Part shown: piece after piece, positions 10,941 through 63,128 of the stretch
Layout of the letters: every line of letters starts with the position of its first letter
Position numbering within the stretch: the first letter of the stretch is position 1
Assembly: GCA_038077975.1 (NCBI GenBank)
Contig: JBBUGM010000011.1
Span: forward strand, 22,038-86,037
DNA from: Patescibacteria group bacterium
GTDB taxonomy: Bacteria > Patescibacteriota > Minisyncoccia > UBA6257 > 2-01-FULL-56-20
Reading direction: 5' to 3'
DNA: 64,000 nucleotides
Notes under the pieces: generated by a model
Seen by the model: the letters and a program-made list of their open reading frames with translations, nothing else
The model's database searches: none
What the model was told of the DNA's origin: nothing
Made by a program: the position numbers and the translations under genes

Positions 10941-11087
10941 GGTGATGATGCTAATTTGCGAATTTATCCTAATAATGCGAATGTCGCCGTAGCTCAATAA
11001 TGCAAATATACGAATGGGTCAATTAGTATATTGGTATGCAGCGCTAAAGCGCCATTAGTATCATTCGCACGCATTTGTATATTGGTA
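10941..11087. repeat. about 140-bp dispersed quasi-palindromic repeat, copy 1
   Basis: Near-identical to 12259-12399. Fills the rpsS-rplV spacer. Confidence 0.9.
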
Positions 11088-11432
11088 TTACGCTTTTTTT
11101 TCTTTTGCCGGTGCAACAGCCGCCGCGGTAGCGGCTCCCGCGCCCTCGGCAGACTTCATTTCGAGTTCCTTTTGCATCTTACCGCCGTGGCGCGTAAATT
11201 TGCGCGTCGGCGAAAACTCTCCCAGGCGATGGCCAACCATGTCCTCTGATACCCTTACATCAACAAAAATTTTGCCATTATGGACCGCGAACGTATACCC
11301 CACCATTTCGGGCGAGATCTCCGACGCGCGCGACCATGTTTTAATGGACGCACCCTCGCCGGGCTTCGCTCTGCCAATCTTTTTTATGATGTCCGGGGCG
11401 ACATAAGGCCCTTTTTTAGAACTGCGCGACAT
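11088..11432 (-). CDS. rpsS: 30S ribosomal protein S19 with an Ala-rich C-terminal tail
   Basis: [11 protein letters not shown] start and HNGKIFV core. 114 aa. Confidence 0.95.
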
Positions 11433-11436
11433 GATT

Positions 11437-12258
11437 TTATTTCCTGCGTTTGATAATTAGGACGCTCGACCACTTTTTCCTGTTTCTCGTCTTGTGTCCG
11501 CCGGTAACTTTGCCCCATTTCGTCTTCGGCTTCCGCGTGCCGCGCTGCGTGCGGCCTTCGCCGCCGCCATAGGGGTGGTCAACCGGGTTCATAACCTTAC
11601 CGCGCACGGTCGGACGCACGCCGAGCCATCTTGAGCGGCCCGCTTTGCCAATCGTCACTAAATTGTGTTCCGGATTCGAAACCTGCCCGATCGAAGCAAA
11701 GCAATCCCAAAGCACGCGGCGCACTTCTCCGGAAGAAAGCTTGATGTCCGTATATCCGTCCGCGTTCGCCAAAACTTCGGCGTAAGAACCGGCGGAGCGT
11801 GCGAGTTTCCCACCCATTTCCGGCGACATTTCTATGTTGTAGACCTGATAACCGATGGGGATGTTCTTCAGGCGCAAGCGATTGCCGACCCTAAGCGGCG
11901 CGGAATCCGCCGAAACCAATTTATCCCCGACCTTAAGTCCATGCGGGGCCAAAATGTAATGCTCTCTTGCGTTCGGATAAAGAACGAGTGCGATGAAAGC
12001 GGTGCGGTAAGGATCATATTCCAAAGTTTTCACGACAGCTTCCTGGTTAAGTTCAAGCTGCTTAAAATCGATGACCCGATAAAGTTTCTTGTTGCCGCCG
12101 CCCTGGTGGCGCATCGTTATCCTGCCCTGGGAATTCCTTCCGGAATTGCTCTTAAGTCGGCGCAAGAGCGACCGCTTCGGCCGCACACCGCTTAAGACGC
12201 CGTAGTCAACTACGGTCATGCTTCGGCGCGATGGAGTTGTTGGGGAAAATTGTTTCAT
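11437..12258 (-). CDS. rplB: 50S ribosomal protein L2
   Basis: Contains [13 protein letters not shown] and [12 protein letters not shown]. Start at MKQFSPT. Confidence 0.95.
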
Positions 12259-12399
12259 AATTCTAATCTGCGAATTTATACTAATACTGCGAATGTCGCT
12301 GTAGCTCAATAATACAAATATACGAATGGGTTAATTAGTTTATTGGTATGCTGCGCTAAAGCGCCATTAGTATCATTCGCGCGCATTAGTATATTGGTA
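12259..12399. repeat. about 140-bp dispersed repeat, copy 2
   Basis: Fills the rplW-rplB spacer. Confidence 0.9.
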
Positions 12400-12669
12400 T
12401 TACGCTATGTCTATCTTCTGCCCTTCCTTTAGTGTCACTATCGCTTTTTTATAACCCGGTTGGCGGCCGCGCACAGATCCCACGCGCTTACGCTTCGAGG
12501 GACGATTCACAATATTCACGTCGACCGGATCAACTTTATAAATGGATTTTATCGCTTTTTTTACTTCCGGTTTGGTCGCGTCGGGCCTCACAATAAAAAC
12601 ATACTTCCTCTCTCCGCTCAAGAAAGAAGATTTTTCCGTAACTAATGGTTTTTTGATGACGTCGTACAT
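12400..12669 (-). CDS. rplW: 50S ribosomal protein L23
   Basis: 89 aa. MYDVIKKPLVTEKS start. Confidence 0.9.
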   Translation of the reverse strand: MYDVIKKPLVTEKSSFLSGERKYVFIVRPDATKPEVKKAIKSIYKVDPVDVNIVNRPSKRKRVGSVRGRQPGYKKAIVTLKEGQKIDIA

Positions 12670-55918: not shown

Positions 55919-57172
55919 TTAAATCTCAAAGTATCCCGTCAGCAAATATTTCCTTGAATATTCCTCAAGCTTTTCGCGCCCAAAATATTCGATGAAAATT
56001 TTGTTCCATAAGGCCTCCTGTTGGTGGTAAAGATATTTCACCATTTCTTTTTCCTTGACCAAGCTCATCACGGTGTCCACAAGGTCAAAACTCACCAAAA
56101 CTTCCACGCCGCTCTCATCCCTGAAATAGTGGCCCACCCAGTCGATGTCCTTCCAAAATGCGAGTTCTTTGCTGAAATGATTGAGTTGATCACCCACGGA
56201 AGCAAGGTGCTCCTCTGCTCGAAGCCAGTGGAGCGCTTCGGGATTGATGCGCGGAACGAAAAGTCGCCAGTCGTTCTCATCGTCCTTTGCCAAATAACGC
56301 TGAACGACGAGCCAGATTGATTTATCATTCTCCATAGGGATCTTCTTTTCTAAAACGTCGCCGCGCAAAAGCGAAGTAAAGTTCGCCGTGAAGGTTTTTC
56401 TCTCGCCGCCGAGCTCGCGGAAGATCGAGGAATAAAATGGCACTTCGTTTAAATAGTGGAGGATGAGCGAAAACATCCTCAAAAGTTCTCCGGAAATTCC
56501 CAAGAGCGCCGGGATAATGAAAACCACGCCAAGTTCTTTAAGGTGGCTGATGTTGTGGTGTTTCTTCAAAAGGAACTTCTGCGTCGCCTTGTTCCATTTT
56601 TCGTTGAGCGCCAGCACTCTTACTTCACGCTCTTCGAAATCATCCGGCGTAAGCTTTTCGTATTGCTTGAAAAACACGGTGTTCAGCCAGTCGCTGCCCT
56701 CGATAAACCGGAGAGAACACATAATCTCCACTAGATCCTCTTTCGCAAGCATGCTTTCTACGGATGAGTACCCCAAAAATTCCATTACCTGCCTGGGTGG
56801 TTCTTTCATCAAAAATTCCTTCGCTTTGTCGAGTTTCATGAAAAAGCCCTTCGGCTTTCCCGAGACCCTGAAGGCCATATCGGCTACTTTCTGGCAATCG
56901 CAAGCAAGTCTCGAATTCGGACTTTTCAGGGCTTTGAACAGGTGGTTGTCGTCCGACTCGATCTTGGAGATCAGGGCGTCATAAACGTCTTTCGCATTCG
57001 CGTCGCGCGGCACTCCCATAGTCGAGAGCCGTTCCATAATAAGAGCATCGTTTTCTACGACTATCTTTTTGAACACGTCTTTCTTTCCCGTAGCCGCGGA
57101 AAGGCGCGCCTCAAGGCGTTCCATCATGTGCTTATCAGCGCGCAAAATTTTCGCTACTATTCCTATCGGCAT
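55919..57172 (-). CDS. hypothetical protein
   Basis: 417 aa counting from MPIGIV. TAATG overlap with the PfkB stop implies one operon. Confidence 0.5.
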   Translation of the reverse strand: MPIGIVAKILRADKHMMERLEARLSAATGKKDVFKKIVVENDALIMERLSTMGVPRDANAKDVYDALISKIESDDNHLFKALKSPNSRLACDCQKVADMAFRVSGKPKGFFMKLDKAKEFLMKEPPRQVMEFLGYSSVESMLAKEDLVEIMCSLRFIEGSDWLNTVFFKQYEKLTPDDFEEREVRVLALNEKWNKATQKFLLKKHHNISHLKELGVVFIIPALLGISGELLRMFSLILHYLNEVPFYSSIFRELGGERKTFTANFTSLLRGDVLEKKIPMENDKSIWLVVQRYLAKDDENDWRLFVPRINPEALHWLRAEEHLASVGDQLNHFSKELAFWKDIDWVGHYFRDESGVEVLVSFDLVDTVMSLVKEKEMVKYLYHQQEALWNKIFIEYFGREKLEEYSRKYLLTGYFEI

Positions 57173-58191
57173 TAGATTTTTCTTATTTTTATTTTTAAAT
57201 TTTTCCACCGACTGTCATCGAAACCGCTTTTTGTGAGCGTTCCTTCCGTCGCGCCGATGTGTTCGACAACGGAAGTCGCGTTCGCGGTAGCGAGCCGGAT
57301 GGCATAAACGATATCCGCGGGTTTTGCCTCGTGAATATTTTTCGAAGTTATCCCCCGCCGCATGAGCCCTGCGGTAAATCCGGAGCCGAATGCGTCTCCG
57401 GCGCCCGTGCGGTCAACGAGCTTTTTCTCTTTGAAAATACCGGCTTTATAAATATATTTGCCGTCGGAGACCGTGACCCCGCCGCGGCCTCCGGTCACGG
57501 CGAGTATGCCGGGCACCAGCTTATCGAGTTTTTTGAAAACCGCTTTTTCCCGCGACCATGGAATACCCGTCACAAGCGCGGCCTCTTCGTCGTTCATCAC
57601 TAAGAACGAAAAATCCTTGAGTGATCTCAAAATATTTCTGCGCCGATGACGCAGGTGGTGCCCACTTGGATTAAAGGCGACGGCTATGTTGTTCTTGCGC
57701 GCGAAACGCAAAAGCGGGAAAAGCATCCTGTCCGACTCTCCCGCTAAAGACAGATACCACCATCGGCTTTTCATTCGGTTTAGTTTCAGGTCTGGCAGCC
57801 GGAACGTGTCGGAGGCGCCATGGTAGCCCAAAATCGTGCGCTCACCGCCCTGGAGTAAAAGTACGGAATAGGCGGTCGCGCGGTCGGGCGTGCAAACCAT
57901 AAGATCGGTTTTCACTTTTTCCTGTTTCAATTTCTGGAGCACGCCTTCCCCGGCAAAATCACAGCCAATCTTGCCCACGGCCGCGGTCTTAAATCCTTGC
58001 CGCGCGAAAGTAACGGAGGCATTCGCCGCGTTCCCGCCGATAGTGAAATAAATATCCTGCACTTCAAGCTTCTCGCCCAAGGACAGCGCGTACGCCTTGC
58101 GCGACGGCGTTTTCGGCCATTTGATGACCGGAAAATTAACTTTGTAGAACGCGTCGCGGGTCGTGGAACCGATGGTTATAACGTCTAACAT
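57172..58191 (-). CDS. PfkB family carbohydrate kinase
   Basis: GGNAANAS and DRTGAGDAFGSGF motifs. Confidence 0.85.
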   Translation of the reverse strand: MLDVITIGSTTRDAFYKVNFPVIKWPKTPSRKAYALSLGEKLEVQDIYFTIGGNAANASVTFARQGFKTAAVGKIGCDFAGEGVLQKLKQEKVKTDLMVCTPDRATAYSVLLLQGGERTILGYHGASDTFRLPDLKLNRMKSRWWYLSLAGESDRMLFPLLRFARKNNIAVAFNPSGHHLRHRRRNILRSLKDFSFLVMNDEEAALVTGIPWSREKAVFKKLDKLVPGILAVTGGRGGVTVSDGKYIYKAGIFKEKKLVDRTGAGDAFGSGFTAGLMRRGITSKNIHEAKPADIVYAIRLATANATSVVEHIGATEGTLTKSGFDDSRWKNLKIKIRKI

Positions 58192-59045: not shown

Positions 59046-60071
59046 TTACTTCTTCCTCTTCAAAACTTTTTTCACCGCGTGCTTGATATCTTGAACGCCC
59101 ATTCCGTATTTCTCGATTAAAGCCGCTGGCGGGCCGGATTCGCCATAGGTGTCGTGGAGACCGACGAATTCCATGGGAGTAGGCGCGTGCTTTGCCAAGA
59201 CCTCGGCGCCCGCACCGCCCAAGCCGCCGTGAATTTGGTGCTCCTCGACCGTCACGACCGCGCCGCATTTTTTGGCTAGCTCAATAATTTTTTTATCATC
59301 GATCGGCTTAATGGTGTGGCAGTTCAACACTATCGTGCCGATTTTGCCCTGCCCTGAGCCTGTCGAAGGGTTTTTCTCCAATTCCCGCGCCGCAACCAAA
59401 GCATTATAGAGCACGCCGCCGCAGCCGATGATAAGCACATCCGCACCGCGGGATTGCCAGAAAATTTCGGCTTTCCCGGGCGTAAAAGGCGTCTGGTCGG
59501 TGGTCATCACGGGCGTTTTCTCGCGCTGGAAACGGAGGTATACCGGGCCCCACATTTGCGCCGCGGCCATCGTAGCTTTCCTTCCCTCAACGGCGTCGCA
59601 GGGAACAAAAACTTTCATGTTCGGCAAGACGCGCATCATGGCTATGTCTTCTGTTGCCTGGTGCGTCGCGCCGTCCGGCCCCACGGAAATCCCGGCATGA
59701 TGCCCCGCTACTTTCACGTTCGAGTCGTTGTAAGCGATCGTCGTACGGATTTGCTCCCAGTTCCGGCCCGGCGAAAAAGTCGCATAAGAAGATATGAACG
59801 GGATCTTGCCCGAGACGCCCAATCCGGCCGCGATCGTCGCCATATTCTGCTCGGCGACGCCGCATTCGAAAGACCGCTCTGGAAATTTCTTGAAAAACGC
59901 TTCCGCGCGAGTGGACTCGATAAGGTCCGCGCAAAGCGCGACCACGGCCTTGTTCTCGTCCCCTGCGATGATCAATCCCTCGCCATAACCATCTCTAGTT
60001 GGCGCCATTTTTAACTTATCGCTGTCAAAAATATCAATATTAAGTTGTGCTTCGGGATTGATCATGAACAA
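59046..60071 (-). CDS. transketolase, C-terminal subunit (pyrimidine-binding plus C-terminal domains)
   Basis: PTRDGYG, GVAEQNM and GPDGATHQ motifs. The RBS lies inside the 3' end of the GIY-YIG ORF. Confidence 0.9.
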   Translation of the reverse strand: MFMINPEAQLNIDIFDSDKLKMAPTRDGYGEGLIIAGDENKAVVALCADLIESTRAEAFFKKFPERSFECGVAEQNMATIAAGLGVSGKIPFISSYATFSPGRNWEQIRTTIAYNDSNVKVAGHHAGISVGPDGATHQATEDIAMMRVLPNMKVFVPCDAVEGRKATMAAAQMWGPVYLRFQREKTPVMTTDQTPFTPGKAEIFWQSRGADVLIIGCGGVLYNALVAARELEKNPSTGSGQGKIGTIVLNCHTIKPIDDKKIIELAKKCGAVVTVEEHQIHGGLGGAGAEVLAKHAPTPMEFVGLHDTYGESGPPAALIEKYGMGVQDIKHAVKKVLKRKK

Positions 60072-60362
60072 AACTTCACCCTCCTAACTTTTTATACCAA
60101 TTTTTTAAAATTTTAGCTAAGTGCCGCTTACCCCATCCAGACTTCAAAAACTTTTCTCTTACCGCTGCATCATGTTGATCCAAGTAAGACTCAATGTAAA
60201 TTGGGTAAAGCGGCACTCGATCTCGCGTGGCATAAACTTTGCCAGAATTATGCATTCCTAATCTCCGCTTTAAATCGTTGGTCATGCCGACATATTTATT
60301 ACCGTCAACTCTGCTTAGCAGAACATATACATGCCACATGGTATAAAAAGTTTGGAGGGCAA
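60066..60362 (-). mobile_element. GIY-YIG ORF cassette between the old and new transketolase 5' ends
   Basis: Bounded by the two homologous 5' coding segments. Confidence 0.45.
60076..60339 (-). CDS. GIY-YIG nuclease family protein
   Basis: 87 aa. VYVLLS...KYVGMTNDLKRRLGMHN, plus the conserved E in REKFLK. Confidence 0.85.
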   Translation of the reverse strand: MWHVYVLLSRVDGNKYVGMTNDLKRRLGMHNSGKVYATRDRVPLYPIYIESYLDQHDAAVREKFLKSGWGKRHLAKILKNWYKKLGG

Positions 60363-60443
60363 GCCGTACCCATCCCGGGTCGGTTTCTGCTCCACGTCCG
60401 GCTCAAAAATTTTTTCCGATAAATGTGCTTCCTGATTAAGCAT
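60363..60443 (-). pseudogene. displaced transketolase 5' end (MLNQEAHLSEKIFEPDVEQKPTRDGYG)
   Basis: Homologous to codons 1-28 of the functional gene (MINPEAQLNIDIFDSDKLKMAPTRDGYG). Differs at almost every synonymous site. Reading frame is lost after GYG. Confidence 0.6.
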
Positions 60444-60598
60444 AAGCGTAATACCAATATACTAATGCGTGCGAATAATACTAATGGCGCTTTAGCGCAG
60501 CATACAAATATACTAATTAACCCATTCGTATATTTGTATTATTGAGCTACAGCGATATTCGCAGTATTGGTATGAATTCGCAGATTAGCATTACATTA
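60444..60598. repeat. about 140-bp dispersed repeat, copy 3 (inverted orientation)
   Basis: Its reverse complement aligns with copies 1 and 2 over about 140 nt. Confidence 0.9.
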
Positions 60599-62670: not shown

Positions 62671-62883
62671 TTATTCGAATTCTCCCTTCGGAATCTTCGA
62701 TTGCTTCACTATTGCAAGAAACGTCCCGATCGGGATCGGCTTTGCTCCGCCATGAAGCGGAACCGGCACCATTGTGCCGGATACTTTGTGGCGATAAATT
62801 TGGTGGCTGCCTTTCTGTCGAGCCAAAACAAATTCGTGTTTGGTCAAAATTTTCACGAGTTCCTTGGCGGAAAGCGGCTTCAT
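62671..62883 (-). CDS. hicA: HicA family toxin
   Basis: 70 aa. LVKILTKHEFVLARQKGSHQIYRH pattern. Confidence 0.85.
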   Translation of the reverse strand: MKPLSAKELVKILTKHEFVLARQKGSHQIYRHKVSGTMVPVPLHGGAKPIPIGTFLAIVKQSKIPKGEFE

Positions 62884-63128
62884 TACTTTGCCGGAACTGC
62901 CACCTCAACCTCGTCAACGATCGGACGAGATTTTCTGATAGGAATTCTTTCTCGATGCGCAACGAGTTCTTCGATCCACAATTCCAGGACTTCTTTGGCT
63001 TTTTCTTTTGCTTCCTCAAACGTCCTGCCGAAAGTGGCACAACCGGGAAATGCCGGGAAAGAAACGTTAAAGCCGCCTTCCTCCGCAGGATCAAAAATCG
63101 CAGTGTAATTGTAGATTTTCTGCTTCAT
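62883..63128 (-). CDS. hicB: HicB family antitoxin
   Basis: 81 aa. YTAIFDPAEEGGFNVSFPAFPGCATFGRTFEEA pattern. TAATG overlap with hicA. Confidence 0.85.
   Translation of the reverse strand: MKQKIYNYTAIFDPAEEGGFNVSFPAFPGCATFGRTFEEAKEKAKEVLELWIEELVAHRERIPIRKSRPIVDEVEVAVPAK

Follow-up and report, generated by a model that had tools for sequence, protein, structure and literature searches.

A probable homing-type GIY-YIG nuclease cassette that strands and replaces the 5′ end of a transketolase gene in Patescibacteria

Mobile endonuclease open reading frames (ORFs) that carry a replacement terminus for the gene they occupy have been described in the mitochondrial atp6, atp9, cox2 and nad3 genes of Glomus (Beaudet et al. 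2013, PMC3630166), and a mobile ORF in atp6 of Allomyces macrogynus is credited there to earlier work (Paquin, Laforest & Lang 1994, via PMC3630166). The present analysis concerns an arrangement of this kind in a 64-kb stretch of DNA (the window) from a Patescibacteria metagenome-assembled genome. Here a short GIY-YIG nuclease ORF stands between an orphan copy of the 5′ end of tktC, the gene for the C-terminal subunit of transketolase, and the working tktC gene itself. The locus, as its sequence and that of other contigs and loci (L-numbers) would have it, is probably a selfish homing-type cassette in a bacterial chromosome, which has stranded the native 5′ end of tktC and supplied a replacement.

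The fungal mobile ORFs (mORFs) with a replacement terminus are the closest known functional analogue. Like the ORF in the window, they are free-standing endonuclease ORFs, some of them of GIY-YIG type, that lie within a conserved gene and import a diverged gene end (PMC3630166). The displaced native end survives unused and matches close relatives, the imported copy does not match them, and the outcome is a hybrid gene. In the fungal cases, which are organellar, the new end is the 3′ one and is followed by the ORF, whereas in the window the cassette has taken over the 5′ end, in a bacterial chromosome, and must therefore also supply a ribosome-binding site and a start codon. A further departure from the fungal mORFs is the nuclease itself, an 87-aa minimal protein of Slx1/UPF0213 type whose ORF has a conserved inverted repeat around it.

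The seg and mob genes of phage T4 exemplify intronless homing, in which a free-standing nuclease gene beside its target is propagated by double-strand-break repair with co-conversion of the flanks, with no involvement of an intron or intein. These phage genes sit between intact genes, use ordinary flanking genes as homology arms, encode DNA-binding domains and bring no replacement segment. An earlier note on this DNA had drawn the analogy with seg and mob; it holds for the free-standing nuclease beside its target and for the lack of an intron or intein, and it breaks down at the duplicated and replacement segments, which the phage systems do not have and which make the fungal mORFs the closer match.

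Tsurumaki et al. (2024, PMC11270868) reported GIY-YIG ORFs in rRNA genes of the candidate phyla radiation (CPR), within insertions that have no resemblance to introns of group I or group II, and judged that these had not spread by homing. These insertions bear a likeness to the hairpins described below from 23S-like sequence in L059; inverted repeats, protein-gene targets and replacement 5′ ends are not described in that study. A search of the literature, thin on subscription journals, found no description of an orphan, nuclease and replacement arrangement in bacteria.

Structure and history of the tktC locus

The orphan, the GIY-YIG ORF and tktC all lie on the minus strand, with the following features in order of transcription.

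60363..60443 (−): orphan, the native tktC 5′ end; ATG plus 26 codons, ending in GYG and encoding MLNQEAHLSEKIFEPDVEQKPTRDGYG
60339..60362 (−): left inverted-repeat arm TTGCCCTCCAAACTTTTTATACCA; contains CCUCC, and its last base is the A of the GIY-YIG start codon
60076..60339 (−): ORF of the 87-aa minimal GIY-YIG nuclease, Slx1/UPF0213 type, with Pfam and profile matches
60075..60099 (−): right inverted-repeat arm TGGTATAAAAAGTTAGGAGGGTGAA; encodes the C-terminal KKLGG and stop, and contains GGAGG at 60084-60080
59982..60065 (−): replacement tktC 5′ end of 28 codons, MINPEAQLNIDIFDSDKLKMAPTRDGYG; cassette-linked and compositionally foreign
59958..59981 (−): probable co-converted tract, codons 29-36, EGLIIAGD; precedes the crossover to resident sequence, boundary approximate
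59046..60071 (−): working transketolase C-terminal subunit gene (tktC); hybrid, the first ~36 codons foreign and the remainder resident

The tktC ORF encodes 339 or 341 aa when read from ATG 60065 or TTG 60071, respectively, and its product contains both Transket_pyr and Transketolase_C domains (Pfam) and is 86% identical to the protein P0033. The orphan aligns with the tktC N-terminus with a score of 74, set against a mean of −9.9 (standard deviation 7.5) for shuffled sequences, none of 2000 of which scored as high, and the homology stops exactly after GYG. The orphan reading frame stays open to a stop at 60315, 22 nt past the ATG of the GIY-YIG ORF. The latter has no Shine-Dalgarno (SD) sequence of its own, and its last codons contain the GGAGG that lies 8 nt before the TTG and 14 nt before the ATG of tktC. 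The earlier note had already described the nuclease ORF, the two possible tktC starts, the ribosome-binding site within the nuclease gene, the homologous ATG-initiated orphan and the endpoint of homology, and the PF01541 match, the domain content of tktC, the spacing, the shuffles and the alignment bear these out in turn. It had also pointed to wobble differences between the two versions of the PTRDGYG block, where five of the seven codons do differ synonymously.

Deletion of 60362-59982 (381 bp, 127 codons) gives an in-frame fusion of the orphan with the remainder of tktC. The inserted unit, of about 381 bp, is made up of a hairpin-bounded GIY-YIG mini-gene, a short spacer and a 28-codon tktC replacement with its own start, and it interrupts the resident gene precisely where its GYG codons meet the E codon. 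Translation of tktC begins at the imported 5′ end, with the right repeat arm supplying GGAGG.

Other identities for these parts were considered and rejected. Were the orphan a decayed paralogue, as the earlier note had allowed, further remnants might be sought downstream of it; tblastn of the window with tktC matches just the 27-codon fragment and finds no other tkt-like sequence. An intron or intein is discounted by the lack of an Rfam match at the locus, the lack of room for a ribozyme, the in-frame stops and the separate start codon that follows; the GIY-YIG ORF occupies 264 of the 288 bp between the repeat ends. Restoration of the gene by excision of the repeat-bounded unit alone also fails as a general explanation. 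The unit measures 288 bp in the window and in L009 and is followed by a spacer of 9 nt (11 nt in L001, 5 nt in L005), and the frame after excision is kept in the window and L009 and lost in L001 and L005.

Three relatives, L023, L024 and L110, possess tktC without a GIY-YIG ORF, their tktC being separated from the upstream gene by a short intergenic spacer, and the nuclease is thus not universal at this position. The first of these is 86% identical in amino acids over the tktC body and has a homologous upstream gene. In both L023 and L110, tktC begins with the orphan-type N-terminus of 27 aa, and at the nucleotide level the window orphan matches the native 5′ end of L110 at 66 of 81 positions and that of L023 at 71%. 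Because this type of N-terminus is shared by L110 and L023 and by almost every one of the 120 most similar tktC proteins, the orphan represents the ancestral 5′ end, which settles the matter, raised in the earlier note, of which version came first.

The replacement is AT-rich and differs from the orphan in length, composition and affinity. It encodes 28 aa, compared to 27 for the orphan and native type, and the GC content of third codon positions (GC3) is 0.32 in the replacement and 0.39 in the GIY-YIG ORF, against 0.56 in the orphan and 0.69 in the tktC body, climbing from 0.35 to 0.85 around tktC codon 30. At the nucleotide level the replacement shares 80% identity with its nuclease-linked counterpart in L022, and only 58% and 56% with its own orphan and with the native 5′ end of L023, respectively. 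The amino-acid identity of the window tktC to these two relatives changes along the gene as follows.

Codons 1-28: L022 (cassette) 0.70; L023 (empty site) 0.54
Codons 28-36: L022 (cassette) 0.88; L023 (empty site) 0.50
Codons 100-339: L022 (cassette) 0.76; L023 (empty site) 0.90

This switch from L022 to L023 places a crossover near codon 36, and the donor-like tract seems to continue for about 8 codons beyond GYG. A mosaic tktC with a crossover a few codons past GYG is the pattern that would be expected of co-conversion. Judged by composition and identity, the cassette and its replacement 5′ end are foreign to the lineage of the window, and tktC is a hybrid gene. The suggestion of the earlier note, that a nuclease cassette had inserted into the 5′ end of tktC together with a diverged replacement segment, is thereby supported by the empty sites, the foreign composition and the mosaic gene, and also by the recurrence of the arrangement described below. 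Gene-tree inference is affected, since the first ~36 codons of tktC differ in history from the remainder, and cassettes of this kind give rise to hybrid genes and to short ORFs that are mis-annotated in Patescibacteria genomes.

Recurrence, the inverted repeat and the nuclease

A scan of species-representative genomes returned 319 relatives, from which 80 loci were kept, and about 35 of the 80 have the same inverted repeat, with the consensus ACCCTCCCAACTTTTTGGAT...ATCCAAAAAGTTGGGAGGGT. Homologues with 56-77% identity are found directly upstream of tktC in unrelated contigs, where the upstream neighbours are all different. The order of orphan, left arm, GIY-YIG ORF, right arm, short spacer and full tktC is repeated in eight lineages (the window, L001/L025, L005, L009, L022, L027, L033 and L108), in every one of which the orphan ends at G[YFH]G and is followed immediately by the left arm. 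An identical design of orphan, repeat-bounded GIY-YIG ORF and replacement is present in a second essential target, two class II aminoacyl-tRNA synthetase genes (L039:2300-2900 and L049:1430-2000), with the junction after KRRGF, so that members of the ORF family do occur beside other conserved genes, where the earlier note had suggested looking for the ORF. These targets are called glycyl-tRNA synthetase (GlyRS)-like from their N-terminal motif, and a further case, L038, lies at a contig edge.

All ten of the cassettes that were pooled retain the ATG and an open frame in the orphan, and the proportions of synonymous (pS) and nonsynonymous (pN) differences between orphan and replacement are 0.89 and 0.29, respectively (pN/pS 0.33), indicating that both copies diverged as coding sequence. 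Orphans differ from the native genes of relatives as strongly as from the replacements (pS 0.93). The wobble differences were considered as evidence of selection for divergence and rejected as such, being ordinary synonymous saturation under purifying selection. The Arg codon at the junction behaves in another manner:

GIY-linked working copies: AGR in 8 of 9
Orphans: CGN in 8 of 8
GIY-less native genes: CGN in 3 of 3

In the window the replacement has AGA at this position, and the bodies of GIY-linked tktC genes use mostly CGN for Arg. The contrast gives a Fisher p of ~1e-4, uncorrected and calculated from counts that include two of the three natives. AGR at the junction could reflect descent of the replacement together with the cassette from a common ancestor, or else recoding at a non-wobble base that would allow escape from cutting.

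The inverted repeat around the GIY-YIG ORF of the window spans 21 bp, CCCTCCAAACTTTTTATACCA (60359-60339) and TGGTATAAAAAGTTAGGAGGG (60099-60079) being complementary at 20 of 21 positions (self-BLAST). Across 33 elements with stems of 19-23 bp, 86% of cells pair, compared to 76% when shuffled (0/500) and 39-58% with slid partners. Fourteen stem pairs have changed on both sides, and the inner four positions, though hypervariable, remain complementary. Arm variants of the CCCGCC/GGCGGG type keep their pairing and lose the SD sequence, and the pairing itself is therefore under selection. In the RNA of the window locus the stem is present in both the minimum free energy and centroid folds (z=-3.2), with CCUCC paired to GGAGG.

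The repeat family also exists without the nuclease. ORF-less palindromic hairpins of 35-42 bp, of the form CCCTCCNAANTTTT-loop-AAAANTTNGGAGGG, are found in other genomes at these positions:

L031:668-702; L024:3633-3667; L029:1256-1290; L059:1773/3545/4123; L009:2912-2946

Such solo hairpins lie in-frame within long ORFs, including LepA/EF4, where they encode ...SPSQILSDKNWEG..., as well as in 23S rRNA-like sequence (L059) and within the orphan of L009. Rickettsia palindromic elements and the REP/RAYT systems are similar, with solo hairpins and an 'autonomous' copy that holds a gene between the palindrome halves. Unlike REP/RAYT, the enzyme here is a GIY-YIG protein and not a tyrosine (HUH) transposase, the hairpins are known from sequence, and the 64-kb window has none outside the cassette. 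Hairpin-bounded Slx1-like elements and their in-frame hairpin derivatives might together make up a previously unrecognised type of mobile element in bacteria, common across Patescibacteria, a tentative proposal that we consider somewhat less likely than not.

The nuclease of the window is, by its sequence, a minimal stand-alone GIY-YIG protein of the Slx1/UPF0213 branch. It matches PF01541 over residues 1-67 (E=4.8e-12, 46.4 bits, cutoff 22.6), and the profile of its family matches the UPF0213 structures 1ywl (E=1.5e-9) and 1zg2 (E=2.2e-9) and, more distantly, SLX1 (7wme, E=1e-3). The protein has no NCBIfam match, and no second copy of the ORF was found in the 64-kb window. In an alignment of 27 homologues, Tyr16 and Glu50 are invariant, and Tyr5, Arg26 and His30 are at least 90% conserved; these five residues presumably serve the catalytic roles of their counterparts in I-TevI and Slx1. 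In a survey of GIY-YIG proteins, the Slx1-like/UPF0213 branch was considered mainly vertical and repair-related (Dunin-Horkawicz et al. 2006, PMC1564403), with the selfish enzymes assigned to another lineage that includes UvrC. The proteins described here are like the stand-alone members of that branch in sequence family, in size and in having a minimal domain without auxiliary domains, and depart from the picture given in the survey in acting as cargo of mobile cassettes. A widespread and uncharacterised family, seen until now as repair factors, is in this way placed in a mobile-element role.

Repeat-bounded GIY-YIG ORFs were also observed in settings of other kinds. In L105 (560-1000), an ORF 72% identical to that of the window lies between a PCC-domain gene and tktC, without an orphan, and the junction Arg of this tktC is already AGA; L105 may represent a precursor, intergenic state of the cassette. 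In L018, L029, L030 and L035 the element lies 8-23 nt upstream of a gene for a large (825-1176 aa) secreted PG_binding_1 protein, and these genes look like another recurrent target. Elements are likewise found with a tRNA gene on either side, exactly filling the gap, or starting 7-9 nt ahead of a single tRNA gene (L016:2600-3020, L055:2400-2850, and L031, L040 and L046 near 2761-2771), with the outer repeat ends abutting the tRNA ends. No orphans were found upstream of the PG_binding proteins or of the repeat-type copies that flank tRNA genes. Repeat-less, distant relatives of the nuclease from Omnitrophota and others (L053:2395-2832, L054:1120-1363 and L051:2470-2854) are preceded by an orphan, 18-19 nt long, of the tRNA-Met 5′ end, and the complete tRNA-Met overlaps the 3′ end of the GIY-YIG ORF, which is the logic of a replacement 5′ end applied to a tRNA gene. 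A further orphan candidate from the automatic survey, in L042 (z=12), looks like a low-complexity artefact and was rejected.

Proposed mechanism and alternative explanations

As a homing-type cassette, the element would spread when its nuclease cuts cassette-free tktC alleles near the GYG-E boundary and a copy with the cassette is then used to repair the break. On the left, homology would be provided by the orphan of the donor, and on the right by the gene body, and repair would leave a few co-converted codons and a hybrid gene. The imported copy may then escape cutting through its recoding, notably the change of Arg from CGN to AGR, which is among the few synonymous changes that alter a non-wobble base. 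The orphan frame ends at or near the ATG of the GIY-YIG ORF in most loci, as in TAATG of L027 and TGATG of L033, or with a stop 1-13 nt upstream of that ATG in L001, L005, L022, L039 and L049, and the SD-less nuclease gene is probably translated by coupling to it. The stem formed by the arms could either link expression or insulate it, through coupled translation or processing of the RNase III type, or else mark the ends of the element at the level of DNA. If so, a selfish nuclease gene can occupy a protein gene essential to a bacterium, with neither intron nor intein, by carrying a spare, recoded start and ribosome-binding site, and the original start left upstream becomes available as a homology arm that travels with the cassette and, possibly, as the place where translation of the nuclease begins.

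Several observations weigh against homing of this kind. The 87-aa protein is a catalytic domain alone, with no second (DNA-binding) domain found by Pfam or in the alignment. It is such a separate domain that confers site specificity on the known GIY-YIG homing endonucleases of the I-TevI and Seg types. There is no obvious motif common to the tktC and GlyRS-like target sites, and the distance from GGAGG to the start is poor in some loci (13-24 nt). At individual loci the orphan and replacement share lineage-specific residues (ALRDGFG in L005, PTRAGYG in L009), such that fairly close donors or later co-evolution are needed. Synonymous sites are near saturation in every comparison (pS 0.6-0.9), as a result of which the transfers are not datable and the cassettes could be old and vertically inherited within clades, and the Arg-codon statistic takes no account of common descent among the replacement segments. 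No empty allele from the same species came up when metagenome contigs were scanned for an exact pattern; the sole match was the contig L109, which is 99.9% identical to the window and has the cassette. Lastly, in tktC and in the GlyRS-like gene alike the left junction coincides exactly with the outer repeat end, and ORF-less hairpins are scattered through other genes; both hint at a step resembling transposition, for which simple homing offers no explanation.

This hint is the starting point of an alternative in which the hairpin-bounded element is itself the mobile unit, a transposon with derivatives resembling miniature inverted-repeat transposable elements (MITEs), and not a classical two-armed homing system. 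By analogy with REP/RAYT and IS200/IS605, the Slx1-like nuclease would act on the inverted-repeat hairpin or cruciform and insert the element by cutting and joining, and the duplicated 5′ end would result from joining of the left end at the break and resolution of the right end by recombination with the donor gene. Such a transposon is in keeping with the terminal inverted repeats conserved, with covariation, across 33 elements and with an inner stem that is hypervariable but complementary; with junctions at the outer base of the left arm in the tktC, GlyRS-like, tRNA-flanking and intergenic copies; with the dispersal of ORF-less hairpins in LepA, other ORFs and 23S-like sequence and of elements in many unrelated contexts; with the place of the nuclease in the structure-specific Slx1 branch; and with the L105 element, which lies beside tktC and has no orphan. 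The same tktC codon has, however, been hit in eight divergent lineages, which would not be expected of structure-driven insertion, and transposition alone leaves the imported foreign 5′ end and the mosaic gene unexplained. The window also has a single copy of the element and no solo hairpins, and neither a target-site duplication nor any other short direct repeat is evident at its junctions by inspection, target-site duplications not having been systematically sought. On these grounds a transposon is considered unlikely, and a homing-type cassette is preferred.

The remaining explanations dispense with a foreign donor or with mobility. The 5′ end of tktC might have been duplicated in situ, in tandem or as a target-site duplication, when the ORF was inserted, and the two copies then diverged with no segment imported. 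The orphan and working copy are indeed direct repeats that flank the insert, and lineage-specific residues are common to both at each locus. Yet the working copy, with 28 aa in place of 27, is nearer to the nuclease-linked ends of other lineages (80%) than to its own orphan (58%), and its GC3 is far below that of the body (0.32 and 0.69). A non-functional duplicate should, moreover, have gained nonsynonymous changes, stops and indels, in conflict with the pN/pS of 0.33, and the orphan has diverged no more than the functional N-termini of relatives. Duplication in place is therefore hardly credible. Domestication fares little better and is thought very improbable: the hairpin of anti-SD and SD sequences, together with the ORF, would be a vertically inherited device that controls the translation of tktC, and the nuclease a housekeeping repair protein of Slx1-like type. 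The stem does pair CCUCC with GGAGG and encloses the ORF, and prokaryotic Slx1-like proteins are regarded as vertically inherited repair factors (PMC1564403). A control device of this sort is at odds with the patchy presence of the cassette among close relatives, the foreign composition and mosaic gene, the occurrence of the unit beside unrelated genes, tRNAs and rRNA-like sequence, and the CCCGCC/GGCGGG arms that keep pairing and lose the SD sequence.

Within the homing-type cassette, the nuclease could in principle take its site specificity from nucleic acid, with a transcript of the orphan, whose sequence is that of the resident allele before invasion, and of the stem directly after it acting as guide and scaffold, or with the stem as a structural landmark. 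This is a speculative idea to which we give little credence. If true, it would aim cutting at whatever sequence lies to the left of the element, in the manner of the homing logic of TnpB/IscB and their omega-RNA with a GIY-YIG enzyme in their place. It would also explain how near-identical proteins of 87-94 aa come to be at unrelated targets (tktC, GlyRS-like genes, tRNA flanks and rRNA), as well as the intact orphans and the junction that is always at the outer base of the stem.

Neighbourhood of the locus

Immediately upstream of the orphan lies one further feature of the region:

60445..60593 (−): 149-bp structured MITE-like repeat, adjoining the orphan ATG and outside the cassette

This copy stops 1 nt before the orphan ATG and contains internal inverted repeats. 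Further copies, in the opposite orientation to the one beside tktC, are located at 12258-12406 (94.6%) and 10948-11095 (91%); with respect to adjacent genes, the three copies occur in both orientations. The repeat has no Rfam match and is absent from L023 and L110; relative to these empty-site relatives it is a second insertion, separate from the cassette.

A second arrangement with an orphan 5′ end lies a short distance upstream of tktC. The segment 62643-62575 is identical at 63 of 69 positions to the 5′ end (61990-61922) of a gene for a 468-aa secreted protein (62005-60599, −), and this 69-bp duplicate opens an orphan ORF of 40 aa (62655-62533, −). Between the 40-aa orphan and the 468-aa gene is a two-gene module (62529-62275 and 62268-62002, −), the second gene of which is YafQ-toxin-like (Pfam E=1e-4, below the cutoff) and has a stop that overlaps the start of the 468-aa gene. 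A pair encoding a HicA toxin and a HicB-like antitoxin (62671-63128, −; Pfam E=2e-16 and 1e-10) adjoins the YafQ-like module, and addiction-type cassettes, HicA/HicB-like and YafQ-like, are thus clustered just upstream of the tktC region.

The gene for the N-terminal subunit of transketolase was not detected in the 64-kb window by tblastn; in L009, L024, L108 and L110 it lies one to two genes upstream of tktC. Downstream of tktC in the window is a gene for a PfkB kinase (57172-58191), a position in which synteny is shared with L006, L009 and L110.

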